The notes under the pieces are model-generated. The model was not told the origin of the DNA and searched no databases. It saw nothing but the letters and a program-made list of their open reading frames with translations. A stretch of DNA of 58,403 nt, filler included, from Sphacelaria rigidula (Eukaryota): assembly GCA_964200075.2 (NCBI GenBank). It is 8 parts of 8 records of this genome, joined end to end, with 100 filler letters (N's around TTAATTAATTAA, not from the genome) between each part and the next. Parts side by side here need not be neighbours in the genome. Positions count along the whole stretch, not along the records: positions 36,567 to 43,779 come from CAXNAA020015940.1; 7 more parts are not named here. One strand, given 5' to 3'. Every line of letters starts with the position of its first letter. The stretch's first letter is position 1. Both the position numbers and the translations under genes were made by a program. Shown here in pieces: positions 3,443 through 58,403 of this stretch.

Positions 3443-3653
3443 TGTAGTGCGTGAGAGTACCGCGTGCTCAGAGGGCCGCGCCGTAGTTCAAAACTCCTCA
3501 GGATCGATGTTTTTCAAAACCAATCGGGCCAGTTCCTGCAAGTACTACGCCCCTGACTATAATCCCAACACTAACCCTGACCCTAACCCTAACCGTAGGG
3601 ATGTTCATATTCCGATGCGGTCCTTTGAGCCCGCGGTCCCCTCACGCATTAAA
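3443..3653 (+). mobile_element. Telomeric-repeat MITE, copy 1 (TGT...ACA family)
   Basis: Degenerate ~38-bp TIRs, internal (CCCTAA)-like tract, 5-bp TSD cagtc on both sides; inserted in the left arm of the foldback element. Confidence 0.88.
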
Positions 3654-4866
3654 CAGTCCGTAGCCATCGTTCGAGCTATCGTGCGGTGCAAATGGCGTCG
3701 TAGCGGACGAGAAACCCGCCTGCTACACACAACCAAACAATAACGCCACCCGACTGGAGGTGGACATGAGCTATGTCTAAGGCGCGACTTGGCGAGTTGG
3801 GTAAAGGTTACGTCCAACTCCAGCGAGTGGAATACCTATCCGCGCTCGTCTCATGTGCCTTGCATTGACACCACATCACCCGTAATACACTCACACAGTC
3901 TGTAGCCACCGTTCAAGCCATCGTTGGGGGCAAACGGCCTGGTAGTGCAGGAGAAACGCGCCTGCTGCACACAGACCCAAAAATACATCTGCACCAGACT
4001 GGACTTGGACATAGCTTTGTCAAAAACGCAACTTAGGCAACTTGGACATAAGCTATGTTGGCAGGAGGTATGGGAGCTCGTAATCATGTGCTTGCGATTG
4101 ATAGCGGTCGCGTTGCAGACAAGAACGCCAACAGGTGATTGCCGATGGTACGTTCTACCCGCATTGTTCCGCGATGCACTTAGGTTTAAGCCAGCGTAAT
4201 TAGCATGTATCGTATCTACAGACAGTGTCCAACAAACTAGAAATCTACACGCTGCTCAGCTGTCTGGCGTCGCACGTTATCTACGTACGCTGCATGTGTA
4301 ATCTGGGACTGTTGGGTATGAAGTGCGGATAACGCATACAAGCCTCGGATATGGCTCAATGACTCGACCCTTTCTTCGTCGCACCGGCGATGTCCTCGAC
4401 ACACAACTAGTGGGTCGAATTCCCACGGCTGAAGGAGCTGCGAGGAAGAAGGCCAAAGGCTACAGCACCGTGATACTGCTCCCGCGTGCTTTAGCTTTGC
4501 ACCACACGATGGCTTGAAAGGTGGCTACATACTATGTGAGTGTATTGCAGCTGCTGTGGTGTCGATACTAGGCACATGGGACGAGCGCGGATAGGTATTT
4601 CACTCGCTGGAGTTGGGCATGCAGTAGCTCATGATGTCCACCTCCAGTCGATTGGCGGTATTTTTTGCCACTGTGTGTAGCACGCGTGTTTCTCGTCCGC
4701 GACGACACCGTTAGCAGCGCACGATAGCTTGAACGATGGCTACGGACTGTGTGAGTGTATTGCAGCTGCTGTGGTGTCCACACAAATCGCATGGGACGAG
4801 CGCGGACAGATATTCAGCTCGCTGGAGGTGGACATGAGCTACCCCCAACTCGCGACTTGGATATAG

Positions 4867-5077
4867 TGTAACGCGTGAGAGAACCGCGTGCTTAGAGGCC
4901 CGCGCCGTAGTTAAAAATACCTCAGGATCGACGTTCTCCAAAACCAATCGAGTCAGCCCCTGCAGGTACCGCGCCCCTGACCCTAACCCCAGCACTAACC
5001 CTTACCCTAACCCTAACCATAAGAATATTCAAGTTCCGATGCGGTCCTCTAAGCACGCGGTCCTCTCACGCATTACA
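4867..5077 (+). mobile_element. Telomeric-repeat MITE, copy 2
   Basis: TGTAACGCGTGAGAG...CTCTCACGCATTACA, internal ccctaa units; TSD atag (4 bp visible; the empty site cttggacatagtagctt is seen in the opposite arm). Confidence 0.88.
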
Positions 5078-7214
5078 ATAGTAGCTTATGTACGCCTCCA
5101 GTCGGGTGGCGGCCTTTTTTGGCACTGTGCAGTAGGCGCGTTTCTTCACCGCTACGAGGCCGTTTGCACCGTGCGATCACTTGAATGGTGGCTACCGACT
5201 GTGTGAGTGTATATCAGGTGCTGTGGTGTCCATTCGGGTATTCTAATCGCTGGAGGTGGACATAAGCCATGTCAAAGTCGCGACTTGGACATAGCTTATG
5301 ACCATCTCCGGTCGGTTGGCGGTGTTTTTTGGCACTGTGTGCAGCAGGTGCGTTTCTCGACCGCTACGAGACCATTTGCACCGTGAGATGGCTTGAACGA
5401 TAGCTACGGGCTGTGTGGGTGTATTCCGGTTGCTATGTTGTCGATGCAAGGTACATGAGACGAACGCGGGCGGGTAGTCAGATCCCAGCTGGAGGTGGAC
5501 ATAAGCCATGTCCAAGTCGCGACTTGGACATGGCTTATGTCCAAGTCGCGACTGAGACATGAAATATGTCCAAGTCGCGACTTGAAAATAGCATTTCCCT
5601 TCAGGAATATATGCTTCATGGCCAAAACATCACGTCTATCTCCAGTCTTCTCTTCCTCCCGCCCCGCTACACTGCCTTCACCCTGACCAAAAACACACAT
5701 AATGCCTATTTGGAGTCATCAACAACGGGAGAATACACTCGACTTCATTTCGCGAACAGAGCAGCATGTTCCGCACGTCTTCCTTACCCCAACTGTCCTC
5801 ATCACGTCCTGCACCCCCAACATCCGTCCCCTGCAACTTATTTCCTTCGGCCCCAATTTTCCTTCGCGTCTGACACCCCTTCTGGGCCCAGCGCCGATGG
5901 AGGGGGGGGGCGCCGATTCCTTGAACTAGTAAAGCATATTGCATCTGAACGTGGTTCATATCTAGCCAGCAAGCACTTGTAGTCCTCAACGCTCTCGAAT
6001 TGAGCAAGCCCGAATACAGACAGTACATGGTATCTTCATTGAGAGTGGAGAACGCTATATCGCTTCTTCCGTACTTCAAGAGAGCCGCGAAATACTGGAA
6101 GGACAAACAAGACGTTTTCTGGTTGACGGCGATAGTGGACGCGATGGTGATGTCGAGGTCCCGCTGACTGCATGTGGCAACATGCAATAGCCACTGCACC
6201 CCGTGACCAAATCTGTCGCCTTCGTCGTGCATCAAGAATACTTGGCAACCAAGGAAGTACCCACGATATACATGGAACTTGCGTTGCTTGCTATAGTAGG
6301 CGGTACTCCTCGTGCAGGATGCCTTTTTTTCCACATGCTGTGCAGTCAAGTATGTCGTCCACACACACACACGGACACACACACGCTGCCACTGCAGCTA
6401 GAGACCCAAGTTATTGGACGTCCAGCGTCGTCAAGTACGAAACAAAAGGATAGAGTCTTGTAGGGAAACGCTGAGGGAGTCTCGAACCGACAAAGTCGAA
6501 TCGATCGCGGATAGTCTTGGCACAGCCCGAGCAAGGTTGCGCGATCGTGGCTCACCTTCGGCGTCCCCCGGCTGCGGAGCGTCGAAATAGTTCTTCAGAG
6601 TCACGATCAGCTCTTGGTTCTCTACCTCTCCCATGTCCGCAGATTCAACAGCCTCCTTCAGTTTCGCGGGCACGGTCGCTTTGAGACCTGCGATGGCCCT
6701 GTGTGTGAGCTCTTCCGGGCTCAGATCGGTGTCGGGCTCACCCTGCGACGCAGTGGGTCGTGCGAAAAACGTCCGGTCGGACGGAGCAACAGTTGGACAC
6801 GGTGGTCACGAGAGTGATTGCTAAGTCGAGCTTGCTGCATCAGAGCTTCAGTGGTCAATACCGAGACGAACATCGGCCACTGTCTGTGCCTGTGGGTCTT
6901 GATATGGTCATGTAGATATCTCACGGTACGACTTACCGGTGTAGCATGTGGGTGATATCCAGGCGATACCCGACCGCGAGGGCAAGCGATCGAAGCCTAC
7001 ATGATCCGCGTTTCGGCGTGCTGTGCGTGTGAAATATCGAAGAAAAGCAAACCCTACCTTGCCAATGTGTGTATTCCACCAGTCGTACAGCGTACCACCG
7101 CCCAAGTCCGCAGCCATCACACACGCCATCGCTATGCCCGTGATCCACACGTGGAACTGGGTCACCGTCTTGCCCTCGAGAGAAGGGTGAACGTCTTCGA
7201 CTAATCACGTACAC

Positions 7215-7314: not shown

Positions 7315-8153
7315 GTCAGTCCATTGCAACAAAAGATCCCCTCTTTCATGAAAAACCGATCAGTGCCTGAAACAGTTTCAGTTCCGAAATGCCCCCCAGG
7401 CGTAAAAATGCTCTGTGCGGTATGTCACCAACGAGACCGCCGAATTCTTCGAATGGGGTACTGTACGGTAGCTGCATGCACAGCACGTGTGCTCAAGCAA
7501 AAAAAAAGGGGGGGAAAGTTGCCTGTTAAGAACGCTAGAGCATCCACTCTGAATCTGAAACTACCCTCTGAATCTCACGAATATAGTGTTAGTAGCGTTA
7601 TTCTGTGAACTCCAAATTACGGCGCTTGTTGGCTAAATAATCGTAACCGCCTCCCAAAATCACTGTTTTTAGGGCCGCTACTAACGGGTTGCATTCTTCG
7701 TACTTTTCATCCATTTTCGGAGAATTTCGGACTTACAAAATAAAATGCAGAAACAGTGCAACGTGAAATTTTCACGGTAAACACTGTTTTCGTGAGATTG
7801 AGAGCAGAGCATTGAGAGTAGCTTTTATCATTCGCTTTAACTCAACCAATTTCACATTCTCTGTGTGTTTTCTGTGCCTGTAACACTGACGTGCTTCCAG
7901 CTACACGTTGATATCCTACACAGGGATATCAAGGGGCTTCAGTGGCGATCTACTACAGAAAGCGCATCGGGCCTCTTGGAGGGGCATCTCGGAGCTGAAA
8001 CTATCTATTATTTATTCATTGACCGCTTCTCACTCTCACTTGTATCCTCTTCTCTCAATCTAACGAAAGCATTGTCAGTAGTAACGTGTACTGGGTCTTC
8101 AATATTCTACTCCTTGACCTGGTTGAGGAATCTGCTCTTTTCACATTTTTTGG

Positions 8154-8410: not shown

Positions 8411-8734
8411 TTTGGGAGGAGTTTTTTTATGGAAGAAATCTGGAGAGTCTGAAGAAGAACAATCGTCCATTAATGATGACACTTGAGGATTTTCATTTTT
8501 CATTTTTTTTTCACTTTTCCGGGAAATTTTCCTGCTTGGAAAAAAAAGCAAAAAGAGAGATATAACGCTAGATTTGCGAATAATATCTAGTCAGTCTTGA
8601 AATGTTTGATCTTTCATCTGGCTGAAATAATTTGTCACATTTTTCGGGAAAGCTTTTCTTTTCTGGGAAAATAGGAAAAGCCAGGAAGAAACAGCCCCGG
8701 TAACAGCAACCCTTGAGCATACACTCGGTCCAAA

Positions 8735-8761
8735 AAGCACGCGGTCCTCCCACGCATTACA
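8735..8761. mobile_element. Isolated right TIR of the TGT...ACA MITE family attached to a different internal sequence (longer relative)
   Basis: aagcacgcggtcctcccacgcattaca matches the family TIR; upstream sequence is A/T-rich and lacks the CCCTAA core; no left end found in this contig. Confidence 0.7.
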
Positions 8762-8839
8762 CTCGGGTGCCGGCCACGCTCACACACATGTATGTACACG
8801 AGCGAACGGTAGCGACAGCCTACTGCGAAAGTAGCAACA

Positions 8840-11800
8840 TCATATCCGGCCCTCGAGTCAGTACAGTGTAGACACTGGCGGACAAATTCGCGTACATGAG
8901 TTTCTATCCCCTGCCAGACACAAAACTCTTGCAAGCGCACGAGCGTCGCAGCCACACCACGATGCCCGGCGTCGCGCATGTGCGCGCAAATCATCAGATG
9001 TACCTGCAACTGCTTGTCAGAACCCGGAATCCACAAAACGTTTCGGCCGCGCACCTGCACACGAAACAGACCTTCATTGTCCAAGATAGCAGTACCAGCG
9101 TCCGACTCAAAAGATTACACACCCGCATCTTCGGCCCCAAGGTCTTTTCGTTGCGCTTGGCGAACAACAGATTTGGACGGCATCGAGTCGTCAGGTTCAC
9201 ACGGACCATACACAGCCACAGCACGCGCAGGCAAAGCCGGAATATTCACCAAACGCAAAAGCAAGTCACCCCACGCGTTACGGTCTCCCGAAATATGGCA
9301 AATCGAGTAACGGTACTGGCCAAGAACAGCTTTCCAACCCCCCAAACGTTGTGCCAATGCTTTCGACACAGACGTAACGCACGCTTCCGGGTTGAAAACA
9401 TACTAGAGATTTCGGTGATCCATGAAAATGTGCACTCCATCCCACAAAAGATGCTCCAAACGACGAAATGTGCTTAAGATAGCAAAACATTCCTCATCAA
9501 TTGTGGCCCAACGCAACTGCGAACCCTCAAAATCACCACTGAGGAAAGCCAGTGGTTCATGCGTGTCCTCAACTGGCAGGTAGGTGTCTTTGCATTTCCG
9601 CTCTAGGTACCTGCGTAACGAAACTGCCCCAATGACACTCAGATGCATCCGGAAACATTAGCACCTGATGATCAGGACGAGGATGGAGCAGCGTCATGGC
9701 GTGAGCCACCAGATCCTTCGCTGCCGCCCATGCCTGCAACCTACCCTCCGTCCACGATGCAGGCGGAATAGCGCGGTTTTTTGCAACATGCTTCATCCGC
9801 CTCGCAGCACCCGCCACGAGTTCTTCGAGGAAAAAACGCAAGGGAGCTACGGTTTCTGCCATACGCGGCAACGAGGTACGCAGTCAATTCACGGCCTGCA
9901 GGAATTCATGAGTTCGGCGGCCGTCTCCGGGCGCCGCATGTCAGACAAGCTTTGCAATCTGACAGGGTCATGAGATACGCGTCCGTGTGAGTACAGTTTC
10001 CGACACCATACGAGTTCACTAGCGAAGAAAGTGCATTTTGGCGCCGCCGCAAACAAACCAACATTTTCTAAACGGGCCAAGATAGCATCAAGCGTGTCTA
10101 AAAGTTCGTCTTCCATATCCGCAAAAAAACACATCATCCACCCATATCTTGCATTTCAAGCCGACAAGCAGTTCCATCATGATACCTTGAAAATATACCG
10201 TGGCATTCAACACGCCTTGTGGTACTCGCTTCGGGGTAAACAAGCCTAATGGGGTCGTGATTGTGAAAATCACCTGCGCCTCCTGCACCAACGGCATCTG
10301 CCAATAACCTTGGAGAGGTCCAACTTGCCAAAAAAACGAGCACTCAAGAGATCACGTATGTCCGACTCTTGATTGGGCATCACACCCGAGCAATGCTACG
10401 ACAGGGGTTGCACTTTTTGTTTCTGGGTCTCGTTTTTGTAGGTGCACAAATATATGGGGCTTACTGTGCAGCCCAAATATCTGGGGACAGGGCATGGAGA
10501 TGCACACAGGGGCCTTTTCGTGAATCGGCATCATTTTCAGTCTTTTCCAAGTGAAAATGATGCCGACTCTCAAAATGATCCGTGCAACACTCCGACAAAT
10601 ATTTTCGCTCAAAAAGTGCAACCCTACCGTAGCATCACTCACCCGGCGACTTCTCAACCTGATCATTTACGGCCTCGTAGTCACTTACCACGCGAAACGA
10701 GTCTTTATTTGGAACCGCCATTGCCGGACTGGACCATACCGCCTGCAGGTTCCGCACTACCAATCCAAGTGCCGAAAGAGCCGCCATGCACGACGCCAAC
10801 CAACTCGACTTCACCGGATCGTACCGCCGCGGCTTCGCCTTCACCGCGGATGCCCCAGGTTTCAGCTGAACACGCATGGGCTCCACGCGCGCAGGGGCAT
10901 CACCCCGCAGTGCACGACGGAACGCGTTGACGCGGCGATGCAAGACGCCGCGCAGGCCTTCCGCTTTGGGGACGCTGAGGCCTTTCGCCACAGCATCCGT
11001 CACGCTCTCCTCAAGCGCGACTTTCCGAGCGGACTCCTCTTCCGCCGGGTCCATAAACATATCCGGGCCGCGCTCTAGTAAGCGTTCCACCGCCGTATCC
11101 CGCTCCTCGGTCACCTGCTGCCCAGCCTCCTGAAAAGCATCCACCGACAAGCTCACGCGACGACTGCCCAAAAAGGCGGTCGTCTCCACGTGCGGACCAG
11201 GTGGAGACATCCGCGTCTTGATGGAGTCCTTCAACCGTCCATACGGGTCGACTCCTAGATCCTGTAGCGTCGGTAGCCCCAGAAGAACAACGCCATCCGA
11301 CCCTGGCATAATCGCGAACGAGATCGGAGGCAAATAATCGCAAACGAGATCGGAGGCAACGGCGCCAGCCCCCAAGCAGTCTTGAAGGCTAGCTGCAACG
11401 GAACAGTACGCTGCGTGACTGAAACATGCTGACCTGACGCGGGGACTGCCTGCCGCGCTCCGACCGAAAACGGGATGCGCAGCGGCACACCCGGGAGTTG
11501 TCGCTCCAGCATCTCAACCATCTGCACCGGCAGACAAGTAAAATGGGCGCCAGAATCCAACACAGACCGAACCACAATGGCTCCACGATGCCGTTGATTC
11601 GGAAGACATAACTCCGCCGGAATGTATCTGTCGGCAAGCTCCACGGAAACTTTTTCCGCTGACCTATGCGCCGCGAATCCCACTTGACGCCACGGCTGCG
11701 CAAACTGCGTAGGCGAAGACGCCCCGGCAGGTTCAAACGGCACCGCCGGTGGGTACACCCCCCAGCCAGCAGACCAAGAATTCGGCGACCCCCCGACCAG

Positions 11801-13388
11801 CGCGTCAACAGACGTCGCGCCTGGCGCTGCTGCTGGTGTCGCCGCTGGCACCACCACCGGGGCTGGCGCAGTGTTCGACTCTGTAGAAGTCGGGCCCACC
11901 TGCACCGCCCGCTGCGGGGCAGCAGCACCTACGGCGGCGCCGGACCCGGAGTCAGGCCCATGCTGCCCCTGCTGCCCCTGCTGCTGCTGGTTCTGCTGCT
12001 GCTGCGGCTGCTGCGGCTGCGGGCTCGCTTGTGACCCTCCGTCGCCGGAGGGTCCGCCGCCGCCACCACGATTACCTCGCCTTTTGCCCTTGTGCTGACG
12101 ATGCTGATGGCGCGCGGCACTAGACTGCCCAGACTCTCCACCGGAAGACGCTGGGCAATCGCGCGCGTAATGGTCGACCTGGCCACAGCGGTGACAAGTA
12201 ATACTCGCGGCGCGATCAGCCGATTTCGAGCCAAGGTTGCGCGAAGATTTCGGCGAAGAGGTGGACAACTGGCCGAACACCTCTATTTTTCTCCACTCCT
12301 TGGCCTCGGCCACGACGGTGCTCATCACCAGGTACGAGTCGTCCTTTTAATCTGATTGGTGCTGCAGCTTGACAAGCATAGCTTGCTTGAAATTTTTCGG
12401 TGTCAACCCCTCCACCAAAGCCTTAGTGATTACTGCTGCCGGGCCAGGAATGGACTCACCATCGGGGAAACAATATACTAGTTCTACGTTCGAATTTTCC
12501 GTGAAGTACTTCTCCAAATTAGCCGAGATGAGCTCCACACGCTCCAACATCCTTCCTCCCCGAGAATCCATTGCGACAGCTTTCGCCACGACCGCGGACG
12601 CTTGGGTCAGATCCACCTCGGCGCCCGCCGCATGCCCTGCATACTTCTTGATCGCCGCCACCAATTGCGGTGAGGTGATGGTGCTCTCGTTATGTTCCAA
12701 ACGAGCGAACACTCTCTGTACATGAGTCGGTACTTGTTGAGCCATAGTCCCCACCTGAGGCCGCACGGCACCCCCTGCATTAGCGTGCTCTACACGCCTC
12801 TTGTACTTCAAGTATTTTGTATAAAAAGTGCGAGATGCACTCTCTGAGTACCTGCCCCCGTATTGGGGAGGTCGCAATTCTTCCCGCATGACCACGGGTG
12901 TCACTGTGGACGTACCTCGTGAGCCGGTAGCCATAGCTGTAGCTGTAACCGGCTACCTGCGAACCTCTGCAGGCCAGCGGACCTTCGCGAATTTCACTTC
13001 CCTCGCTTCGCCGCCGCACCACACAGTCGTAGGAGCCTCCAAACACCCGCTGCACGCAGCTTCAGCAAGTCTCCAGTCTGGATCAATCACAGGCCAGCAG
13101 CCTTTCTGCAGCTGCCTCAGCTGGAACCCTCTCCACGCGTCCGTGGGTTATCAGGTTTCCACAGCTACCAAACTCCTTCCGCCGGATTCCTTTCAGGGGA
13201 TTTCTAGCACTAACACCAGCACTAGCGCAAATATCGATATTGTGACGCCCGCCAGTGGAAGCACTGTTGGATCACTGCTGTTGAGAGACTCCCCAGTCTT
13301 ACTGGCCTCAGTCTCAGTTTTCAGCCTTTACAATATTCTCATTATTCAGGAGTGATCTTCCAGGGCACCAGCTAGACCTGCAGGTACC
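8840..13388 (-). mobile_element. Decayed Ty3/Gypsy LTR retrotransposon (gag-PR-RT-RNaseH-integrase zinc finger), 3'-truncated
   Basis: Gag-like ORF 12934-12347; CCHC knuckle CHRCGQVDHYARDC and protease VLDSGA in 12328-11255; RT motifs WSSPAMAVP...FRVVSDY, PQGVLNA, WVDD; RNaseH MFPDASECHWG; integrase HHCC H-x5-H...CLHC at ~8870-8980; multiple frameshifts and stops. Confidence 0.95.
10388..10640. mobile_element. GAG-ended MITE (Sola2-like termini), copy B, inserted in the Gypsy RT
   Basis: TIRs gagcaatgctacgacaggggttgcacttttt / aaaaagtgcaaccctaccgtagcatcactc; TSD accc; removing it restores RT reading EKSPG|VMPNQESDIRDLLSARFFGKLD. Confidence 0.85.
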
Positions 13389-13389
13389 A

Positions 13390-14021
13390 TATCCGTGTCC
13401 CCGGTGTAATGCGTGAGAGGACCACGTGCTTAGAGGACCGCGCCGTAGTTCAAAATACCTCAGGATCGACGTTTTCCAAAACCAATCGTGTCAGTCCCTG
13501 CAAGTACCACACCCCTGACCCAAACCCCAACACTAACCCTAACCCTAACCCTAACCATAGGGTTGTTCAAATTCCGATGCGGTGCTCTAAGCACGCGATC
13601 CTCTCACGCATTACACCCGGTCATTATCCAGAACCCTCCAGAATCTCCGTTCCCCTAGTCATTATCCATCTCATCACTATCAACACGCCTCGCCAAACGT
13701 GCTCGGACTACCGCTAGGAACTCGGGGTACACGACACGGAGCATGATTCCGTGAATGCAATCATGGTAAGAGTAGTCATGGCAAGTGATTACCTTGGGGG
13801 GATGGCGTGTCCGATATCTCATCGGTCTCCATGCCGAGGGTCTCTGTACACGGCAGCTGACCGCATCTGCCAAGCCTTCGGCAATAAATTAGGGGACAAC
13901 AAGCTGGTCCCCCCCCCTACGTACAGCCTGGTCCGGCGAGAACCCAGCGTGCTCCGTCCCGGCTTTGTAAGGGTGGACCCCCGATGGGGTTGGCGTCGGT
14001 TGGCGATGACGCTATAGAACA
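13390..14021 (-). repeat. Candidate 5' LTR of the Gypsy element, followed by a putative PBS (TGGTACCTGCAGG, 13389-13377)
   Basis: Starts TGTTCTATAG on the minus strand where it interrupts a LINE fragment; ends just before a TGG-initiated motif upstream of gag; no second LTR available for confirmation. Confidence 0.4.
13405..13615 (+). mobile_element. Telomeric-repeat MITE, copy 3
   Basis: TGTAATGCGTGAGAGGACCACGTGCTTAGAGGACCGC...GCGGTGCTCTAAGCACGCGATCCTCTCACGCATTACA; internal ctaa(ccctaa)3; perfect 5-bp TSD cccgg. Confidence 0.93.
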
Positions 14022-14427: not shown

Positions 14428-14527
14428 TGTAATGCGTGAGAGGACCGCGTGCTCCGAGGACAGCATCGGAATTTGGACATCCCCATGGTTAGGGTTAGGG
14501 TCAGGGTTAGTGTTGGGGTTATGGGAT
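14428..14527 (-). mobile_element. Telomeric-repeat MITE, copy 4 (cut by contig end)
   Basis: TGTAATGCGTGAGAGGACCGCGTGCT TIR followed by ggttagggttagggtcagggttag; the contig ends inside the telomeric tract. Confidence 0.88.
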
Positions 14528-15216: not shown

Positions 15217-16197
15217 TATACGTACGGAAACCATAACTAATGCTTCACAGTCTCGCACAGATGCACGTACACCTCAACATGTCCTCTCGAGACTGACAGC
15301 AGCTCTGGTGCCTCTCGAAACAATATTCTACATCTGTCTCGCTTCAACAAGTTTTAATGGTCCTAATGATTGCGTGAGTAGGTCCTATATCTGTCCGTAA
15401 AAATTTCCTCTGCAGTGCCATCATACAAGTACGTTATATTCGATCAAATGTCTGATGTAGTGATACTTCACGCATATGTGCCTTGTCCGCGGATAGTAAC
15501 GTTCCGTTGTCGCTAATTTGAGAGCCCCAGTGTCGTCCTCATGAACTGTTGTTGCCTTAATCTGTTCGAATCCAGCGGACGACAGCAAGTCCCGGAAGTA
15601 TACACACTCGTGTCCCGCTTTGGACAGTGCTACATATTCTGATTCCACTGTGGACAACGTAACATTTGTCTGCCCTTCCTTGTGATTTTCAATACAAAGG
15701 GCCACCAGCGAAGTAGAATACGTATCCGGTTGTCGAAAAACCTTCATCAGGGTCTACAGCGTAATCGGCGTCTACGTATCCTATCAGCTTGTCGTCGTTA
15801 CCATCTCTACACTTCCCGTACGTGGTACGAAGCTCTGTAGTACCTCGTAGATATATCAACAGCCTTCTCAGCTTTGTCATAGCACGCTTCCCTGGAGATG
15901 ACATGCTTCTTGATATTATAATCGCGATTTTAAGGTCCGGTCGTGTACAACAACTCATGAACAGCAATGGTCCCGTCGCATCTCTGGAGTAAGTTGTACT
16001 TTCTGGTGCCAATACATACTTTTCCTTGACACGTATTTGTTTTACTTCGGCAGGAGTCCTCATCAAGTTCGCATCTTGCATACCGCGAATGTCCAGGACC
16101 CATCTCGCATACGTCTCCTGGGATGATTCGATTGTCCCCGCCGAGTCGTCTCGTTTGATAGCCAGTCCGAGTAGAAACGTGGCAGGTCCCAGATTCA

Positions 16198-17161
16198 TAG
16201 GGCCGTGAACTGGACCAGTTTATACTGTCCACTCAACTGGAGCTGGAGTTGAACTGGAAGTGGCGATGAGGGCGCTAGTTAATCCAGTTTATTTGGGTTT
16301 TACCGTTACCTGCTTTTTGTATAGCAATTTAAGCATGTTGGCTTTACAACGAAGATGCTTACACCATCATGTATGATTTCCCTGTAAGATTGAAGCCTGC
16401 ACTTTGCAGTTGCTGTGGAATACGGGGTATCAGTTGAGATGGAGGGCCCTTCGAAGGCGTCGGCGGAAATCGTTCGCGTAAAAACAAATGACGCGTGACG
16501 CAGCGGTGCACAGCTTCATGCCTGGTCTTCCATGTTTCGGTCGACTTGTACTGTAACAGCATAGGTCTGGCGTTCTGTGGTAGTACCATAGCACACAAAG
16601 AACGGGTTTGCTCCGGTCTCGTCACTAGCTGACTACGTTAGGTGTTTCCTGTTTTTTTGTTTGTCGCGTCTGCTTCGTTGGTACTTCGTGGTTCTGCAGT
16701 TTCACATTTTTTTTCTGCCGTAGCTTGTAGGTCGACGGCCGGTCCGTCGAATGAAGAAGATGGAAAAAAAAGGAATTGTGATTAATGTACCGCGGGACGC
16801 TTGATGCGGAACTGTCAACCGCCAAACCTCATTTGTCAGTTAGTTGCCAAGTGCATGATGAGCGTTTACAACATGATGCGGCACATGCGCATTACACCTC
16901 CAAGGGATGTAGCAGATATTTGCCAAGGTTTGTGGTTTCAATGCACATCCGAAGACAAACGTAACAGACGGTAACCCGCGACCACGAAGTACAAAATTTA
17001 CCATGGGTTGCCATTCAACTGCGGGCGTGTTTGTCAGCCTGGGCGTAAACAATTTTGCGCTCTTATTCCCACGAGCTGCCAGCCGTGCCTTCCTTACTCC
17101 CACCCTCCGCTCCTCACGAACAGTCTGCTACTACATTCTACAGATCAATGTTCTCAATCAG

Positions 17162-30229: not shown

Positions 30230-32880
30230 ATTGAAAACGACTGGTACAAGCTGTTTTCCCGCGTCTGACACAGTGTACTCCTTGACGAAAGCCTTGGCCT
30301 CGTCGTCGCTCTGGAGCAGGGCGCACTTGACCGCGTGTTCCACAGCGACATCATCGCCCATACCATATTCCTGAATGTAATGTGGCTGCGCACAAAACTG
30401 ACACAGCATGGGCAGGTTGGTGCAGGGGGTTGACCTCCTCGACACTTTTGCCGAAGAGAGACGCAGATGTACCTCCTCGCCCCGCATGTCCCCCCTGGGC
30501 GCGTAACGACAGTCGGACAGTACTGTTCCGATCTGATAACGCTTCGTGGGAACCTTGATGAAAAAACAGCGCTACCCCGACCGATCACGAGATCCGAAAA
30601 CATTCCTTTTCCATAACTCCTCGTGATGAAGCATGTGGCCTCTGACATGGTGGCGCATTTTTGCACTCGTCACCTCGACCGCACAGATTGCGCACTCGAG
30701 GTGCTGTCTGTACGAAACACGGAGGCCCGACACCGCAACTACCGTTATCTGACGGCTAATCAATCTGAAGAAGAAGAAGGGCACACATACTCGAAGCGGG
30801 TTGAGGAGGGGCGACTGCGGCAGTTCAACCTCAGGAAGCAGGTGATGCGGATAGCAAATCACCTAGATACAATGAAGCGCTTTTTGCTGTTCCTCAGCAA
30901 GAACGACGTGCTGGGACTGCGGCGACACATGGCACTCCATTGTATCTAGGTGATTTGCTATCCGCATCACCTGCTTCCTGAGGTTGAACTGCCGCAGTCG
31001 CCCCTCCTCAACCCGCTTCGAGTATGTGTGCCCTTCTTCTTCTTCAGATTGATTACCCGTCAGATAACGGTAGTTGCGGTGTCGGGCCTCCGTGTTTCGT
31101 ACGGGCAGCATAGTCCGATCGCAGATGCCTGGCAATGGCATCGTATGCGATAATTGTGCTGTTGCTCAGGCGAGAACATATACTATGCTGCAGCTGACCT
31201 CCAGAAAATCGTCAGGTTCCGCGCTTTTGTCCACACGAATGTTTGCTGCTCTTCACCACCATTTGCGCCCTGGCCATATGACACAGCAACAAAAAGCGGT
31301 GATTGTTCCTTTCAACGTTTGAGCAATCCTTGTTAACCCGATGAGGTAGGTGCTCGGCGAGATTCCGAGTGAGCGTAACACATTCAAACGCTGTGATGAC
31401 AAAGGGGACCATATTTTTTCGCGCACTTTTTTCGCGTTCGAACATCTGAGGTGTCGATACCACCACACGCACGCATCAATGGGAAAGCTTACTTGTGCTC
31501 CTCCAAGTCTCTTGTGTCTTTCAACGAAGGCTTCAGTCAGTCTTGTCACATCTTTGCCGAAGACATGCTCGCACGAGCAAGTCCACTCGCCGGCAGCGTT
31601 CTTTGTTGCAACGGTAGCGATCGCAACCTCGGCTTCCTGAGGCTTTATCGCGTTCCTGCCGCACATGTTCGAAACAACACGCAAGTCACACCGTTCAAGA
31701 TATGAAATTACAACTTCCAGGTAAGGGTGCAAATGCATACCTTGGGCATGGGGTTGGTTCATCAGCGTACTACTCCCTGCGCCGCCTAACCTGGACGATA
31801 TAAACGGATGGCTATTTCATGGAAAAAGTGGAGGAGCTAAATCGTGTGGAATTCATTCAGATCCTGAAAAACAGAACGTACCTGTGCCTAGCAGACGCCT
31901 CGTGCTGTTTCAGCTGAGCCTCTCCCATTCCCGTGCCCGCAGTCTGGAAAGGCTGCTTGCAAACCTTGCACTCCATTTTTCCCGATTCCGTCTCTCGCAG
32001 AAGTCTCACGATGAGCGCTGCAACCGTCTCCTTTGCAGCAGATCTTGCCTCTCTGCTGGTGATGGTGCTGGTGGAGTTGGCAAATCCGGGGGATGATGGT
32101 GCGGCAGGCTAATCGCTTTTCGCCTTGACATTTTCTGCGTGTTAACGGCACGTCAACCAAGCGACCTCTGATTTTCTGGTGTGCCAGAGACACGAGAATT
32201 TCGTTTTCGGAATGACAATCAACGCCGATACGTTACCCGATTCGAACGAATTGAGAACTTAGATTGGAATGGAGGTAGGCTGTAATGCAGCGTGCGTAAC
32301 ACGTTGACCTGTCAGATAATATGGTTCGACAACTACGCCGGGTCTCAGACAACCAACCTCCTGCAAAGGTAAAATTTGTACCGAAGTATATCTCGCCGCG
32401 AGCGGGTACTAGCAGTTCGGCGTGGCCGAAAATGGCTCCGCGGCAGTGTGTTTTGTGAGACCTAACACAACAAGCTCCTACAAACAAAAACCACTGCACC
32501 TGGCATACGTTGATGTCACATTGCCATTTCGTATCACTGCACTCCCTGTAATCTAACGTTGGTGCGGTGTTGGCTGCGCATGTACCCATGTTGTCCCACT
32601 CTGGTGTACCACCAGTACATGCACTGTTCAGTGCTTGCTTGTTTTGCTGCTAACGACACCGAAACAAGCTCACCTTGCATCGGATGTGTTGGCATTCCCA
32701 GCTGCTACGCTTTCCTCCCCTGCCTGTGAAGCGCCTCCACCAGCCGAACTACCAACCTCTGTTGCGGCGCTGGTATCGGCCATCCTCTCGGCTGGCACAA
32801 TTTGATTGCGGTCTTCAGCACACACTTTTGACTTTAGATGCAGACGCAGGATTTTCCTGTTCTTCATCTCATTTCCTTCA
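30230..32880 (-). pseudogene. Decayed, apparently spliced Cys/His-rich (zinc-finger) gene, possibly transposon-derived
   Basis: CKVCKQPF...LKQHEASARH (C2H2-like, ~31970-31883, ends at a GT donor); CAIC...MRHHVRGH...STPCTNLPMLCQFC...EH read through one stop (30700-30330); GT donor at 32673; interrupted by the 30702-31110 hairpin. Confidence 0.45.
30702..31110. repeat. Near-perfect inverted repeat, ~179-bp arms and ~50-bp loop
   Basis: 30702-30880 vs 30931-31110, about 5 mismatches counted by eye; no TSD. Confidence 0.95.
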
Positions 32881-36919: not shown

Positions 36920-37099
36920 TTAAGTCATCCCACGTAGTACCCGGAACTCAAACAGGTATGTACTATTGTACCATATCCTGACAAGGTGTATCTCACTGAC
37001 TACCCCAGGCCATCCTACGAACAATCTCCACCCTTTCGGAGCCACCGATAGATCTACGGACGACAACCGCCAGACATTCAGAATTGACCGCGTCCTATG

Positions 37100-37304
37100 T
37101 GTAATGCGTGAGAGGACCGCGTGCTTAGAGGACCGCATCGGAATTTGAACATCCCTATGGTTAGGGTTAGGGTTAGGGTTAGGGTTATGGTCAGGGGTGT
37201 GGTACCTGCAGGGACTGGCCCGATTGGTTTTGAAAAACATCGATCCTGCGGTGTTTTGAACTACGGCGCGGTTCTCTAAGCACGCGGTCCTCTCACGCAT
37301 TACA
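37100..37304 (-). mobile_element. Telomeric-repeat MITE, copy 5
   Basis: Near-perfect 37-bp TIRs; gg(ttaggg)4tta at ~37159-37187; perfect 5-bp TSD ctatg. Confidence 0.95.
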
Positions 37305-40300
37305 CTATGGACCTCAGCAGCGGATAAGGGAGGGGGGTTGCCGTGGCACGCGGGAGTGCTGCAGGGAACGGAGAGGTTCATGACCTTATGTAGCACAAAA
37401 ATGAAGAGGAGGCCAGTCGACTGCATGCGATTAGGCGGGAGACGAACGAAGCCCACATAGCACAGCGATGACGACGGTCCAGAGAAGGGGGGTGGGGGGT
37501 CAACCCCCCCAATGAGGGGTGTCGTTATGTCGTGCAGTGCTTGTCTTGATACACCTCGTATGCTTGTACGTATGGCTGTCCCTTGAGACGTCGAAAGATG
37601 GAACCTTGCGATTCTTATTTCTTTGGTTGGTGGTATTTGGAACCTTGAGTCTCGCCCGTAGTCGGACCCTATGTTCACTTCTACTTGGCCTCGCGCGTCG
37701 AGTTGGAAAGCCGGGTGCCACCCCCTGAAGTCCGAATGGCCACCTGCGTCACCAGATCTCCTGAGGTCAGCCATATATACTCTCTTTGTTCTTTATCAAT
37801 CTCTGTTTTACTTGTATCGCGTTTGGTGAGTTTTAATCTAGGTTTATTTTGTGTTTTGTTTGGTTTTGTTTGGTTTTGTTTGATTCCCCATACCTTATTA
37901 TAGGTAGCTAGCCTGTGACCATGGCAGGCGTCCGCATCAGATGCCCAGTACGAATGTACCGCGCAGATATCGGAACGGTTTTTAAGGTGAAGACAACTTC
38001 AACAACTTGGCGTAATTGAGTCAGACTTCGTTGAGGAAATACTGTAGCTTTGGAGACATACTACAGCTGTGTATCAACATCATTGCGGTTTAGTTCTCTG
38101 TTCACTTACTGGCGTCTTCATTTGTGTGGTAGTGGAAGAACCATGACACTAAACTGGGCGGAACACTGTCTTTTGTGGGGTCCTTGGAAGAAGGGTGCCT
38201 ACATCAGCACGGATACCTTGCGCTATAGACCAGCCCCAGCGCATTTGGCAGCCGAATGGTAAAGGATGTATATTACTACGGAGGGGGGAACCGTTTCTTG
38301 CACAACATGCATCCTGCCAAGGTAACACCCGACGAAGTTGACACCGTGCGTTCCTAGTGCAGTACAATAGTACTGCTGTAGCTGGCTGCAGCACTGACCG
38401 GACTGACCGCACGAATCGAACCATGCCTCGGCAGGGATACAGTGTAATTCCTGCGATCTGTGACGATCCGTGAAAAAAATCAATTTGTAACCTGCACTAT
38501 TATCCTATTCTGGAACCAAGTGAAATAAAAACTCCCCCAAGGGCGATCTCGCGCCTGTCAGTGAAAGCAGGTCAGTATCTTTATGTGAGAGCAAGCCCCG
38601 TGTGAATATCCGGTTGATTCTGATAGAAAAAAATTTAAGTCTGGCACTGCTAGGGAGGAGACGTTGCCCCTGGCACAACAGGTCGCAGTGGTCCTCAACT
38701 GAATACCCTCTTCGTCTTGACTACGCTGTGCGCCCATGTCTTTGCTCGACACGGCACATAAAACCCAAGGACACCTGCCTCTCACATACTGTATGGAGAA
38801 CCTTCACTGGCGGTTATTTCCCGCCTTGGTGTAAACCTCGACCAACAGGGGGTCTAGGTGAAAAACATGACGCGGGTGAGATCATACCCCTACCTCCACC
38901 CGGATTTTTGTCATTAGAAAGTGTTCTAGTTGACTGAACCACCCCAGCATCTTGCATGCAGTAGCCACCCTCCAAAGCCACGCTGCGCACAGAACGCCTT
39001 GGGCCGCTGAAACTGCTGCGTCAACACCTACCTGCGGATTCAAGCGGCACATACGTCGAATTTCACCATTATCAGACGCCAGGTATGTTATGTTGGTGCA
39101 CCTAATCTTCAAATGCACAGCCTTCATATCGTTGAAAGGAACTTCACGAGATTCGAAAATGTATAAGTCAGCACAGCACTGTTGTCTGTTCAACAACAGT
39201 ACAGTGATGAGTCTATATGTTGTACGTTACCCTGAGGCACTGTGCTGTACCGTACCGTACACGACACTACACTTGAATACACTTGCACTATAAGGCACTG
39301 CACTACGGTGCACTACAAGACACTGCAGTGCTGTGCAGTGTACAGTAGAGACAGCGCAGACAGTACAATGGTGCACTACAGGCTACCGTAGTGCTGTGCA
39401 GTATACTACAGTAGGGACAGTTCAGTACAGTCAACAACAGTACATTCCGGTACCGTGAAGTGCAGCGATACCGGACAGATAGACTGTGCGGCGGCACTTC
39501 CAAAGGACACATAGCCGCATTGCGATGATTTTGCAACATGCCACTCATAACGGCGCAAGATGCCATGACCTCTAACGGAATAGCAATGCAGCCAGGTGAA
39601 GCACTGCCTGCGCGCCGTAGACTACAAATCGCTCACACCGTCTTCTCCCAGCTGAGGCTGGCATAAGTGAGGAGCTGTACCCAACGCTTCTTAGATTCCA
39701 TGCAACACAACGAAGCGAATACTGGTACCATGATGGCAGCAGGGAGACCTTGTGGCTGGTCCTGTTTGGTGAGCATGACAGTTGTGATGGATATCCCGCT
39801 TGCTTGGTAGGGTATATTGATTGTCAACTGGCTGTGACAGTGTTGGTGGGGTTGGGGGTGGTTTGTTTCGTTTCGCTGTGAAGTTTGAAGAGGCACATCG
39901 GTTTTCAGAGCGGAGTGCTCCAAACAGGACCCTGAAAAGTCTACTCTGAATTTTTTTCATGGTGGAACGTTTGAACGTCTACTGCTACTGTACCGTTTCC
40001 CCCCCCCTCCCGCTCTTACTTTGAAATGCGGGGAAAACATTTCCGAAACTCTCTAAATGAAAGCACTACTCGCACGAGTACTGTATTTATATCTATATAT
40101 TATAATCTTTAGTGCCGTTCCTGACCGGTTGTGTACGTGTGCTCTGCGCGTCCCACACAAATATTTGTTTCTCATTGGATTCCGACAAAAATTGAGAAAG
40201 GCCGCTCGCAAAGTGCACAGCTGATGAGCAGCTGCGGCTCCAGCTGTGTGGTTTTGGTCTGCGGGAGGAATGTGTTCCTGAAGTTCACTCCTGATTGTGT

Positions 40301-54100: not shown

Positions 54101-57100
54101 CCGCCGAGATTTGGGATTATGCTTACACTGTTTCTACCTCTGCGTTTACTACAGATGATGCACATCTGTGGAACCCCCTCCTCTCGTCTGCTGCCAGACA
54201 CGAGGCCTTCAGCCGCCACGCAAATAGTTGCATTATTTGTAACACCCAAGGGCACAGTATGCGCGGTTGAACTCGCCTCTGAATGAACTCTTTCGACCTC
54301 ATGAACTCTGAGCTGCAGGACAATGAGCCAGCATGGCGCCGATGGCAGAAACGCATGCGTGAATACCGCACACCCAACCGTCATTCTCGCAGCCCTTTCA
54401 ACAACCGCGACAACACTCGCTCGAATCGCGACAGTCGTCCCAACAACTGCGACAACTCTGGCTCCCAGCCAAGAGAGAGTTCTTCTCACCGTCGCCGGAA
54501 TTCCGCCGATAGACACCAGCGCACGGGGCCAAATCACCATCACTCGAACCCCAACACCAGAAACCCTGGTTCCTTTATGACTGATCGTACTGATCCATGA
54601 CATGCCGACGCCGACGTTTTCACGTCTTCGGCGCCGCCGACAGCACACACGAAGACTACTTCAACACCAACCGCGGAACGAGTGACCAAACCTTCTCGCT
54701 CAACCTCCCCGGCACTATGCAGGAGTTCTAATGACGGCCGTTCATATCGACCCCCGTCTTCACCTCTTCGCACACAGCGTAACAGTTGCGTTGACTCACA
54801 ACTTAGCCCTACCCTCGGCTCTGGACTTGGTCCTCCGGAACTGAGCGCATGGCTGAGGTGTGGGAACACCAACCGCCCGTCTCTGAGGCAAAGGCTTCCC
54901 TCAGCGACCGCACGCACAGGCAGTAGTGTACTTCACTCGACTGGTTCAAGTATCGCTGGTCGGAATTCGACCGCTTCGGACCAGGTAACACCCACCCCGG
55001 TCGAACGATTTCATTCTTCGCGTTCATTGCACCATGCGAAGCTACCCCTGAATGGTCTCCACATAAACCATCCTACTATACCTTCGGCTATGACTCTCAG
55101 CCAAGCTTGCCAGCGGACAGTCCACAAGCTTCGCCCGAGCATGCCCCGATGCTGACCCCATCCACTCAACTGGACGCAGTTGGGTTTTCCCCAAACACAT
55201 TGGAAGTTCCCCGCCCTTTGTCACGGCGAGAGAGGAAGCCCCGTGAACATGCCCCCACTGAAGCGCGCGCATCAACACGTACACCTCCGTCGAGTGGAAA
55301 ATCTCGACCTCACTCTCTCCGAAATGCGACGACTTTGAGCTCGATGAATTTATCAAGTGTCCCACAAGAACCCGAATCAGATATTTCGGACATTTTCACC
55401 TCTTCTGCGGACTACACTGAACAAGATGGATCTACTTTAGACGTTGATCCCTGCTTTCCCAACACGGTCATCTATGAAATTGCTAACGACCAGCCGGGCT
55501 GTGCTCACTCTGGGGACTACACATCATCCACCAAACTTTCTTGTGAGGAAGTTGACCCCCCGGCGGATCACCCGCCCTCCGTTTTCGCCGTCAGCACTAC
55601 TGATTCCGATCAATTTACCTTGGCTGAGCACGGTCCGGATGTTGTCGGCGGTAGAGTGTCTGTTGATCCTGCCACTTTTACTACTCGCGTAGCGCTCCAT
55701 TGTGGATCATACGCAACCACGACTACCAAATGCGTCCCTTTGTTAAACAGCGGCAGCCCACAAACATTTATTCTTGAATCAATGTGGGAACATATGAAAC
55801 AGATTGGCGCTGCTTCAGCAGCTTGCGAAAACACCACCGAACCTCGAGTATGGGGCAGTTTTGGTGACTCCACCGCACCTTTGACCACACGAATATCAGT
55901 TCGTCTCAGTGTGCAATTCTTTCACAACACAACTCGTTCTGCTAGCCTTGCAGTCTGGGCATATGTCGCCCCGACAGCACCATGGCCCACGCCTTACTCA
56001 TGGGCCGAGACAGTTACATGCGGTTTGATCAACGCACCTACCGCACAATACTACCATTATCGCCACAGTCTGCGCCTCGTGGAGAACTCAACCTTGGACA
56101 TTCCGGTACTCTTCACGGCGCCTTGGCCTATCAAAAAAACGAACAAGCTACCGGAGCTGCTTACCACCTCCGATACGATGGTAGTGCTGGTGTTACTCTC
56201 TCCGATGATCCTCAACTGCTAGAAGTTGCCTTAGTTCGCCGAAATGGCATGCCTGCCCTTACGGGACATTCCCTCGCTGAAATGCTTCCTCGGGTTGTTG
56301 CGCCTACCGGCACAGAACACTTTGTCTCCGCAGGGAAAAAACGTTTGCCACTCACGGGTCGCGCTAACTTGGAACCCGGAGATGTTTTGGGTATTGCTGC
56401 TGCTCCCCTTATGCACATTCCACTTGAGACATGTGCCACTGAACCCTCTACGCCCAGCTCGGCGCCTCCGACAGACGGCTCTGTCAATCGCGTCGATGAG
56501 CCTTACTTCGACGTAACCTCTTCGTCTCCATCACGTATCCACACCGTGGACCCTGCAACGTCAACGTCCGACCCTCCTGGTGAAGTGCTGCAACGCCTAT
56601 CCCCCGTATCTCAGACAAGTTTCTTGCACATGCGGGATCAACTTCCCTCCCATTTACGTAACATCAACTTTGGCCTACATGGACCCGGTTGAGAACGCGC
56701 TGTAATCAACGAATTGAGCGATGTTTTATAGGAGTACCAAGACCGATTTTCTCGATCCAAACCCAATCTGGGGCATTGCAAAACGCTGCCCTTTGAAATC
56801 ACCCTTCAAGCTGGCGTTTCGCCACTATCTTCTCGGCCTTATCGGACGAATCCCATCCTTACCCAAGAAAGTTAACGCCATTTTAGATGCGTACTTAGGT
56901 GCCGGATTAATCCAACACTCCTCTTCTCCGTGGGCCTTACCGCTAGTGGTGATCCCCAAAAAGGATGGGAACATACGCATCACCGTGAAATATCAACGGC
57001 TAAATCGCGTCACTGTAGTGGGAAAACTTCCCATTCCTCGCATAGATGAAGTCTTAGACTCTCTAGGCGAAGGAAAATTATTCAGTACCTTCGATCTCGC

Positions 57101-58403
57101 TTCTGGATTTTTCCAGAATGCCATCCACCCTTATACAGTCCCACTGACAGCGTTCTGTACATCTTCTGGGCTCTACGAATGGCTCCGTATGCCACAGGGT
57201 GCCGCCACTGCACCAGGTTGTTTGCAACGCTTAATGCAACGCGTTACAGAGAATCTCGAACACGTCATTATGTACTTGGACGACGCTATCGCATTCGATG
57301 CCTCCCCTCTTGCGCATGTGCACACCTTACGAGAGTTTCTTTCTCGACTGCGGAAACATGATTTAAACTGTCTCCATCCAAAGCTCGCCTTGGCGCGACT
57401 GAACTGGATTTTCTGGGACACTCAATTTCACCGGCGAGTCTACCCCCCGAAACCAACAAAGTCCGAGCAATGACTGAACTGCCGATGCCCACGAACATTA
57501 CTCAGCTCCGCTAATTGTTGGGTGGACTGTCCTGCTATCGCAATTTTTTGCCTAACCTGTCCAAACGGATTCGCCCCATTATGGACTTGCTTAAAAAAGG
57601 CGCTGCGTTTGTCTTCACCAAAGATACGGAAGCTATCGTGCGCGACTTGATGAAAACGCTCACCGAAAAAACGGTCCTTTGTTTTCCGGACTGGGATGCC
57701 GTACAAGACGGCTCTCGCCTCTTTCAACTACATACAGACGCGAGTACCGAAGGCCTCGGCGCGGTCCTGAATCAGTCTCAACTCGATTGCTCTATTCGAC
57801 CCATTCTCTGTATCAGTCGCGCCACCCTTCCCAACGAGGCCAACTGGAGTCCACTGGAGCTGGAAGGCGGAGTCACCACTTGGGCCATAAAGCACCTTCA
57901 ACAATATTTGTTCCATGTGCATTTCCAAATCTACACAGATCACGGAGCACTTGAACAACTCGTCAAAGTTGGCGAACATAACCCGCGTGTGCAACGCTGG
58001 TTGGAGTTCCTGACAGCTTATCAGTATACTGTCAAACACCGCCCTGGCAAAACCAACGGGAATGCTGACCTTCTCTCCCGCTTGCCCCTTCCTCCAACGG
58101 CTGTGGATTTCAGCCCCGCTTGTCGACTAACTGAACCCGATGAACCCGGCGTGTATCCTATCCGGCGTTTCTCGACGCCCATTTACGCCCTTGACCTTCA
58201 TTGCCCAGAGACGGGTATGCACATGGGCGGCCCCCGACCCCTACCGTATGATGCAGTCTTGAATGGGCTACAACCCACCGACGCCGATTTCGCCGATTTC
58301 CGTACTATCGGTCCTCGCGCAAATATTGCAGTTTCGCCACCTCCAGTTAACAGCCGATTTTATATTTTGGGGTTCATACAAAATATGGGGCTGAAGTGGC
58401 ATA
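51192..58403 (+). mobile_element. Decayed Ty3/Gypsy LTR retrotransposon internal region (long gag-like region, PR, RT, RNaseH)
   Basis: CCHC remnant CIICNTQGHSMRG* (54229-54270); protease-like LLNSGSPQTFI (~55740); RT SPWALPLVVIPKKDG...FDLASGFFQ...MPQG...YLDD (56920-57283); RNaseH LHTDASTEGLGAVL...TDH...NADLLSRLP (57728-58090); many frameshifts and stops. Confidence 0.93.

Follow-up and report, generated by a model that had tools for sequence, protein, structure and literature searches.

Ginger-Type Transposons and the Sphacelaria MITE

Ginger transposons end in TGTNR and duplicate 4 bp of target DNA, or 5 bp in the TDD elements, and their mode of excision is still open according to the available part of PMC2836005, which is the source for Ginger1 and Ginger2/TDD throughout. 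Ginger2 MITEs are known as well, the available text of PMC3845634 describing Ginger2_NA of Bombyx and Rhodnius. The element considered here, a MITE from the brown alga Sphacelaria rigidula (assembly GCA_964200075.2), appears Ginger-like when its sequence is set against these descriptions, and as it lacks the target features of Ginger1, Ginger2, IS481EU and GingerRoot, it is assigned to neither Ginger group. Two features common to both Ginger groups were found: TGTNR termini and a target-site duplication (TSD) of 4 or 5 bp, the latter in 106 of 107 exact TSDs. The preferred reading, held at a probability of about 0.6, is that the family is a cut-and-paste, non-autonomous transposon bearing terminal inverted repeats (TIRs), present in ~2,300 copies and moved in trans by a Ginger-type transposase with H2C2 and DDE motifs, and that its telomere-like tract is most likely a passenger.

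Ginger2 and TDD elements resemble the MITE in their TGTNR ends, their TIRs of tens of base pairs and their TSDs of 4 bp (animals) or 5 bp (TDD-4/5), and they resemble the candidate transposase described below in combining H2C2 and DDE motifs without an RT. Unlike them, the MITE mixes both TSD lengths in one family, has a telomere-like tract, and numbers thousands of copies against tens to ~120 for the Ginger2/TDD elements and their MITEs. Its target is not the AT-rich RTATAY of Ginger2/TDD. In the candidate transposase, additional sequence separates the first catalytic aspartate from the second, and this enzyme has no supported grouping with Ginger2-like rows. Ginger1 shares TGTNR ends, intron-containing transposase genes and GC-rich 4-bp TSDs with a central CG, but two thirds of the exact TSDs of the MITE are 5 bp (71/107) and the 4-bp ones are varied, with no strict CCGG specificity. 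Ginger1 also has GPY/F and YPYY motifs and an OTU or Ulp1 domain; none was matched in the scanned pieces of the candidate gene, which is broken and partly annotated in its 3' part (OTU and Ulp1 by Pfam; a clear GPY/F motif by eye in the C-terminal piece).

In the available portions of PMC10045372 and PMC6839031, IS481EU elements encode an integrase-type DDE enzyme, end in TGT…ACA and show various TSD lengths within a family, as does the MITE, but these lengths are ~4, 15 and 25 bp and the enzyme lacks the HHCC motif present in the candidate transposase. GingerRoot/IS3EU elements, described in the same portions, likewise depend on an integrase-type DDE enzyme but have 6-bp TSDs, found once among 107 in the MITE, and mostly TA ends. 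PlavakaA has TGT…ACA ends but 2-bp TSDs in the available text of PMC12730594.

In Ectocarpus sp. 7, the non-autonomous DNA5-N1_Ec32, entered as 'possible Ginger?' in the table of PMC12477816, shares TGT…ACA ends and a 5-bp TSD with the MITE. Compared by description only, it differs in its TGTTG ends, its 9-bp imperfect TIR, its length of 502 bp and its 103 copies. The same annotation table holds no autonomous Ginger and pairs none with DNA5-N1_Ec32, and its entries include no Ectocarpus family with the termini and size of the MITE. The main text of the brown-algal genomes preprint (10.1101/2024.02.19.579948) contains neither 'Ginger' nor 'MITE', and literature searches, judged mostly from their listings, brought up neither this family nor an algal MITE with a telomere tract. 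Two parts deserve further study: the putative clade of Ginger-type transposases in brown algae and the rule for targets with 4/5-bp duplications.

Structure of the MITE

The window, meaning the whole stretch of DNA that was analyzed, comprises 58,403 nucleotides from eight ~7.2-kb contigs joined by N-spacers (Table 1). The original prediction placed five copies, starting at 3443, 4867, 13405, 14428 and 37100, in three of the eight contigs; all five were confirmed, and a lone TIR at 8726-8761 had been missed. That TIR was considered as the end of an autonomous element and rejected, its inner side being a mosaic of other repeats without a transposase.

Table 1. Features of the window, by position in the whole stretch.
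Feature	Position	Strand	Remarks
MITE copy, 205 bp	37100..37304	+	G-rich strand of tract on +; one hexamer shorter than the modal 211 bp
TSD ctatg, 5 bp, left copy	37095..37099	+	From sequence and empty-site joint
TSD ctatg, 5 bp, right copy	37305..37309	+	From sequence and empty-site joint
37-bp TIR, TGT end	37100..37136	+	GAGGACCGC motif at 37112 and 37128; 16-bp period
Opposite 37-bp TIR	37268..37304	-	36/37 complementary; motif copies at 37268 and 37284
Telomere-like tract	37161..37197	+	4 perfect TTAGGG (37161-37184) and 2 variant hexamers
MITE copy, 211 bp	3443..3653	-	TSD cagtc; one end decayed to AAA; within tandem repeat array
MITE copy, 211 bp	4867..5077	-	4-bp TSD atag
MITE copy, 211 bp	13405..13615	-	TSD cccgg
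Partial MITE copy (TIR and tract only)	14428..14527	+	Contig ends at 14527
Lone old-type TIR, 36 bp	8726..8761	-	Adjoins Gypsy integrase H2C2 remnant
Array of ~215-240-bp repeats	~2850-5600		Both orientations; palindromic core; hosts copies 3443 and 4867; site also hit in L014
End of ~465-bp TIR element	7315-7591		Very abundant (5,102 candidates); 46-bp TIR; end resembles CACTA by eye
Degenerate Gypsy/Copia remnants	8635-13355, 15689-16219, 54900-58403		gag, RT, RNase H, H2C2
Foldback element	30702-31110		179-bp arms, 97% complementary, 51 bp apart
Frame of 1,015 codons	44824-47871	-	~20 EsV-1-7 cysteine-rich repeats; 114-bp period; PF19114 E 2e-299

The predicted TIRs of ~37 bp with a duplicated motif were borne out. 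The two TIRs match over 30, 34, 34 and 36 of 37 bp in the four complete window copies, and each holds the 9-bp motif GAGGACCGC twice, predicted here to be a transposase-binding repeat. Across the family the TIRs are of the TGTAATGCGTG type with ends that read TGTAA, and the predicted TGT…ACA termini hold for most copies (TGT in 153/168, ACA in 145/168) but not for the 3443 copy, which ends in AAA. In the 37100 copy an imperfect TIR match reaches ~55 bp, and the tract starts directly after this extended arm. Short, bounded by TIRs, without a transposase, high in copy number and flanked by the TSDs of independent insertions, the element has the features by which a MITE is recognized.

Read contigs (run X4) contain a joint that skips positions 37095-37304. 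The 210 bases skipped equal the 205-bp element and a 5-bp TSD, and because 5 bases fit on either side, the joint fixes both the boundaries and the TSD of the 37100 copy. The empty form is probably a paralogous site, not an allele, since the flanks of this copy are repeats themselves. Copy lengths fall on a six-base ladder between 199 and 235 bp in 105 of the 168 copies. A match to Rfam MIR1437 (52 bits vs a gathering score of 168) and a stable fold (z -11.6) were both set aside, as each reflects the TIR hairpin only. One frame is open throughout 37100-37304 (69 codons), with an estimated chance over six frames of ~20%, and is probably a chance frame; 211 + 5 is divisible by 3, so that a rare coding insertion could keep frame.

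Copy Number, Age, and Clustering

The 244.4-Mb assembly (27,214 contigs) holds 806 exact 35-mer TIR matches and 2,858 TIR ends at no more than one mismatch, and the reversed-pattern control gave 0 for both. Calibrated on 19 bystander copies, the family amounts to ~2,200-2,400 elements, or one per ~100 kb; the density of one per 12 kb put forward by the original prediction is a local one. Nineteen arbitrary contigs, chosen by round number and spanning 162.3 kb, held 3 old ends and 0 young copies against the 14 copies expected at one per 12 kb. The TIR pattern gave 0 matches in metagenome and viral contigs, and the evidence for copies in a second organism consists of low-depth read pieces. Twenty single or widely spaced TIR candidates all turned out to be MITEs.

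Divergence from the consensus has a median of 5% in young copies and 15% in old subfamilies, suggesting several waves and no very recent burst. No two of 144 copies are identical, the nearest differing at at least 4 sites. The copies are not hypermutated at CpG, where C to T changes amount to 2.7% against 4.1% at other sites.

The copies are clustered. Among the first 1,455 contigs, 13 carry at least two listed elements (2.3 expected) and 4 carry three (0.04 expected), the expectations being Poisson values calculated without regard to contig sizes, and contig C2290 has six separate copies in 9.4 kb. Local hopping as the source of the clusters was rejected, as same-locus neighbours are not closer relatives: their p-distance is 0.150 (33 pairs) vs 0.139 for other pairs (2,742). 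The clusters therefore reflect lasting regional preference or retention. No common gene family or base composition was found in the flanks of the copies. Three copies are nested in other copies, one of them within the tract (nested loci include L136:2568-3048 and L251:1803-2197), and read contigs also show copies 25-31 bp apart.

Target-Site Recognition

TSDs of up to 11 bp were scored in 168 two-ended copies, picked by similarity or TIR match and biased to young ones. The original prediction of a consistent 5-bp TSD did not hold: an exact TSD measures 5 bp in 71 copies, 35 copies have one of 4 bp, and a single copy has one of 6 bp. A single mismatch was accepted in 36 more (24 at 5 bp, 12 at 4 bp), 23 have no TSD and 2 lie at a contig edge. 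Mismatched flanks yielded exact 'TSDs' at 0.16% (5 bp) and 0.65% (4 bp), whereas 4-bp matches that allow one mismatch arose at 5.7%; this last class is therefore partly chance. All 168 flank pairs differ, and this, with the differing TSDs of the window copies, confirms the earlier claim of independent insertions.

A target bias, which the original prediction had proposed to check for, was found in both length classes. Position −3 is a purine in 127 of 142 half-sites of 5-bp TSDs and in 64 of 70 of 4-bp TSDs; position −4 is G in 65/142 and 33/70, respectively; and T is rare at the first TSD base (5/142 and 1/70). The two classes thus have a common palindromic half-site in the same phase relative to the cut. 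They differ at the center, where 4-bp sites have a YR step in 21 of 35 cases vs a 25% background (p=1e-5; 11/15 in the discovery set and 8/16 in a fresh set), whereas 5-bp sites have no steady central pattern. TSD ends are mostly C/G, and CCGT/ACGG accounts for 5 of 31 listed 4-bp TSDs. The window copy at 4867, with a 4-bp TSD, and an independent, oppositely oriented copy in L014, with a 5-bp TSD, occupy the same site in a host repeat. A single integrase-type enzyme with a variable stagger would make both TSD lengths. A reading of the copies as introners was rejected, since the TSDs supply no fixed AG.

These preferences recall those of retroviral intasomes as set out in the available text of PMC4422553. 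There, YR enrichment increases with shorter TSDs, and the targets likewise have a weak palindrome, a central YR step stronger at 4 than at 5 bp and avoidance of T at the first base. Unlike the retroviral systems, the MITE has TIRs and consists of DNA only, and a single family combines the two staggers.

A Candidate Transposase

Following unpaired MITE ends led to an integrase-like gene on the + strand of contig C1162 (locus L257, 17 kb). The gene is enclosed by a tract-bearing end (L257:357) and an opposite end (5880), the two end types of the family. It has an H-x3-H…CxxC motif and three DDE catalytic motifs, and by eye its C-terminal piece resembles an integrase CTD. Two introns are GT-AG and a further one has a GC donor. 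The gene is broken by an in-frame stop in the second exon and by an old MITE copy in its 3' part. RT and RNase H gave 0 matches on the whole 17-kb contig, while two control LTR loci did match. Two long frames on the same contig (L266:1630-2559 and L265:1855-5679) look by eye like other transposase remnants.

The exon with the D-E motifs has a single match in the 244 Mb assembly (60 candidates scored), in a six-frame search that can miss intron-split or diverged genes. Pfam rve matches this exon weakly (E 7e-4) and is above the cut-off for homologue P0003; a PDB integrase core matches it at E 4e-5, and an atlas match (0.93) is again an integrase core and adds the domain only. A HMMER search of 1.84 billion representatives gave 54 matches, 11 of them at E<1e-10. 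The homologues examined, which are Logan gene calls and one Nemacystus decipiens protein, stop or run into introns at the same points. In a 43-row tree with rows labeled by domain content, ten rows of the C1162 family filling less than half the columns, this family forms one clade (100/99) among Gypsy-like integrases, separate from an IS481-like clade (100/100), from Copia and from the Gypsy rows of this genome. Relative to the Ginger2-like rows, none of them a named Ginger reference, it falls in an 84/50 polytomy.

Locus searches with the transposase alignment yielded 80 and 16 loci, all of them distant (identity mostly 27-43%); of the 21 translated, 20 are IS481-like by eye and 1 is Gypsy-like. 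Word-indexed protein searches for long relatives found none in one case and five distant integrases in another. Of 1,683 candidate Pfam rve loci, 150 were scored and 50 inspected; the readable ones are all Copia or Gypsy, and 3 of the second 20 show no motif. A search with rva_4 gave 3 marginal matches (E 7-9e-4), none linked to the family.

The gene was met within 102 kb of inward sequence from 54 unpaired ends, or 0.04% of the genome, and for a single-copy gene a chance encounter is therefore unlikely. The original prediction had proposed a search for long elements with the same TIRs around a transposase ORF, and this is only partly what was found: a broken gene is enclosed by family ends, but those ends have no common TSD; all they share is an overlap of 2 bp and 5 bases by which the host repeat continues. 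A third TIR lies at L257:5426, and the 6.2-kb stretch holds five TIR ends. This TIR may be a piece of a nested MITE, as may the left arm with its tract, so that the link between gene and TIRs rests on one rearranged locus.

It is conceivable, if unlikely, that an unseen transposase moves the MITE and that the C1162 gene belongs to a different element surrounded by MITE pieces. The absent TSD and the crowding of TIR ends would fit such an arrangement, as would the clustering of copies elsewhere, and a gene split by introns or diverged could have escaped the six-frame search. The enzyme class on C1162, however, is the one predicted from the ends and TSDs of the MITE, the gene is single-copy and yet lay in the small fraction of the genome inspected, and the 5880 end runs on for ~165 bp as a long-element end common to two other loci, C3000 and C2422. 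By the preferred reading, the moving enzyme is very probably of Ginger type and, with somewhat less assurance, probably a member of the candidate C1162 family. The predicted cut-and-paste movement by an integrase-type DDE enzyme is supported by the TGTAA ends, the 4/5-bp TSDs, the target signature and this candidate.

The Telomere-Like Tract

At least three hexamers within one mismatch are present in 165 of 168 copies. The original prediction of an off-centre CCCTAA tract of variable unit number was right as to presence and position, but the tract is of short length and degenerate. Its longest run of perfect hexamers counts 0-2 units in 117 copies, 3-4 in 46 and 5-9 in 5, with a maximum of 9. 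The claimed ability to form G-quadruplexes holds for a loose motif (110/168 copies; G4Hunter-type maxima of 1.4-1.8 in window copies) but much less for the strict one (36/168).

The predicted spreading of interstitial telomeric tracts is supported in that the family is a main source of short ones. The first 100 of 1,567 (CCCTAA)3 matches listed make up 54 tracts, of which 26 are in this MITE (18 assigned by position against TIR lists, 8 among 35 fetched), one is a contig end and about 11 belong to a second family. This second, dispersed family (~340-390 bp) ends in CAGTA…CCTC and carries long inverted repeats in sub-terminal position; one copy has an 8-bp TSD (family loci: L008:~115-450, L191:35-421, L166, L171, L177, L179-L181, L185 and L196). 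Its ends resemble those of Ectocarpus KDZ-1_Ec32 and unknown3-N1 in the table of PMC12477816; it is KDZ-like and unrelated to the MITE. A KDZ search gave 0 matches for query and control alike. Head-to-head TTAGGG/CCCTAA tracts occur at L167 (C79:14466-14516) and L178 as a palindrome inside another repeat.

Where the tract came from is suggested by its position. The G-rich strand begins where the ~60-bp TIR arm has its 3' end, its GG being in register, and short interstitial telomeric sequences at repaired breaks, in the available text of PMC7215372, similarly consist of few TTAGGG units at a junction with the 3' bases of the arm in register. Unlike those cases, the MITE tract is amplified inside a mobile element, and no tract-free parent allele was found as proof. 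Tract-free relatives of 455-602 bp with the same TIR type and internal repeats were observed at L072:8595-9196 (C3000), L272:~600-1098 (C2422) and L257:5426-5880; that on C3000 is 602 bp long and has a 5-bp TSD with one mismatch. Beyond the TIR, the far arm of the MITE matches these relatives weakly, 3-188 of 500 shuffles reaching the score of old copies, and the homology is not significant for a young copy. The tract lies at the junction of the short TIR arm and a ~105-bp arm akin to the tract-free relatives, and is thus plausibly a repair patch. That it is a passenger from the birth of the element is probable.

A tract with a function of its own is unlikely by comparison. In such a case the same transposon would carry a tract bound by host Myb-type telomere-repeat-binding proteins, which would aid amplification or tether the complex to chromatin and so make the clusters. 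Retention of the hexamers in nearly all copies agrees with this, but conservation after insertion does not: among 106 young copies, divergence is 6.1% in the three core units vs 5.4% in base-matched interior, so that no special conservation of the tract is seen. Decay of the tract at the pace of the interior and the inconsistent TSD length are two outcomes that the original prediction had itself named as refuting it. TIR divergence in the same copies is 3.2-3.3%, the TIRs having served for selection, and a first set of 75 copies gave 9.2% for the tract vs 7.0-9.5% for the interior. The oldest (6 copies) and youngest subfamily consensus differ at ~27 positions, yet agree throughout the three core hexamers and the 8 bases that follow. 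This unchanged core would fit function, although it was noticed post hoc in six old copies. Slippage alone can regenerate a repeat consensus, and the young, abundant consensus has a variant in place of one hexamer for which the older consensus has the perfect form. The similar tract of the unrelated KDZ-like family, the strong clustering beyond local hopping and the three nested copies also speak for a role; against this, introns and DNA close to genes are filled by DNA transposons generally in Ectocarpus (available text of PMC12477816), so that clusters are possible without a tract.

A wider scenario built on such a role is more doubtful still. Brown algae would have their own cut-and-paste lineage, derived from a Gypsy-like integrase apart from Ginger1 and Ginger2 and with a relaxed 4/5-bp stagger. 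Its MITEs, and unrelated KDZ-type ones, would be born with telomerase-written patches at a deletion junction and would succeed as telomere-repeat-binding proteins dock on them, steering insertion into clusters.

The seeding of telomeres envisaged by the original prediction, with the element spreading seeds for telomerase (chromosome healing) or for G-quadruplexes, is very improbable. TTAGGG is the telomere repeat of Ectocarpus, and subtelomeric satellite motifs have been hypothesized to seed healing (available text of PMC11541908). The MITE does carry almost half of the sampled tracts among the first 100 matches listed and often a loose G4 motif, but its runs are mostly of two units or fewer, strict motifs are in the minority and the tract decays at a neutral rate. 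Only two (TTAGGG)10 arrays exist in the assembly, and neither is in or next to a copy, in a fragmented short-read assembly that may lose true telomeres. One contig does terminate in a TTAGGG array, joined directly to sequence that looks by eye like a retrotransposon (L045; C583:19887-19953), and may be a telomere or a healing site. An internal (TTAGGG)n array at L047:~1480-1570 (C25608), between pyrimidine-rich flanks and compact ORFs, is not a MITE.

Least probable, and largely refuted, is a solo LTR or TRIM of a Copia or Gypsy retrotransposon with TG…CA ends: the size, ends and TSD lengths overlap those of Ectocarpus LTR elements (the PMC12477816 supplement gives brown-algal TSDs of 4 bp for Gypsy and 5 bp for Copia, and LTRs of 187-265 bp), but the MITE has TIRs of 37-55 bp, 0 flanks are common among 168 copies, loose read-contig ends at the termini agree at 0.32-0.34 (81-349 contigs) with no common continuation, and 0 of 50 LTR integrase loci are bracketed by copies, those present there being insertions.

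Proposed Mechanism and Implications

In the Ginger-type mechanism preferred here, a transposase multimer would bind the two 9-bp repeats at each end and pair the ends. Excision of the element would follow, and its ends would be joined to a bent target at points staggered by 4 or 5 bases, the central YR step of the 4-bp sites providing a bendable target. The enzyme would likely come from the family of the spliced, integrase-like gene that is broken on C1162. The tract would plausibly have entered as a patch left by repair at the internal deletion that gave rise to the MITE, and would since have been copied along with the element, changing in 6-bp length steps by slippage and without seeding telomeres.

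The idea that the element seeds telomeres gains no support. About half of the sampled short telomere-like tracts are nonetheless borne by the MITE, a point of practical weight when telomeres are called or motifs scanned for. The analysis provides a candidate transposase clade for brown-algal Ginger-like MITEs, with homologues that have conserved intron positions, and given this clade, existing long-read genomes can settle the question of the partner. Because one family produces duplications of 4 as well as 5 bp, and bendable targets are favoured at the shorter stagger, it lends itself naturally to testing what sets the TSD length of integrase-type enzymes.
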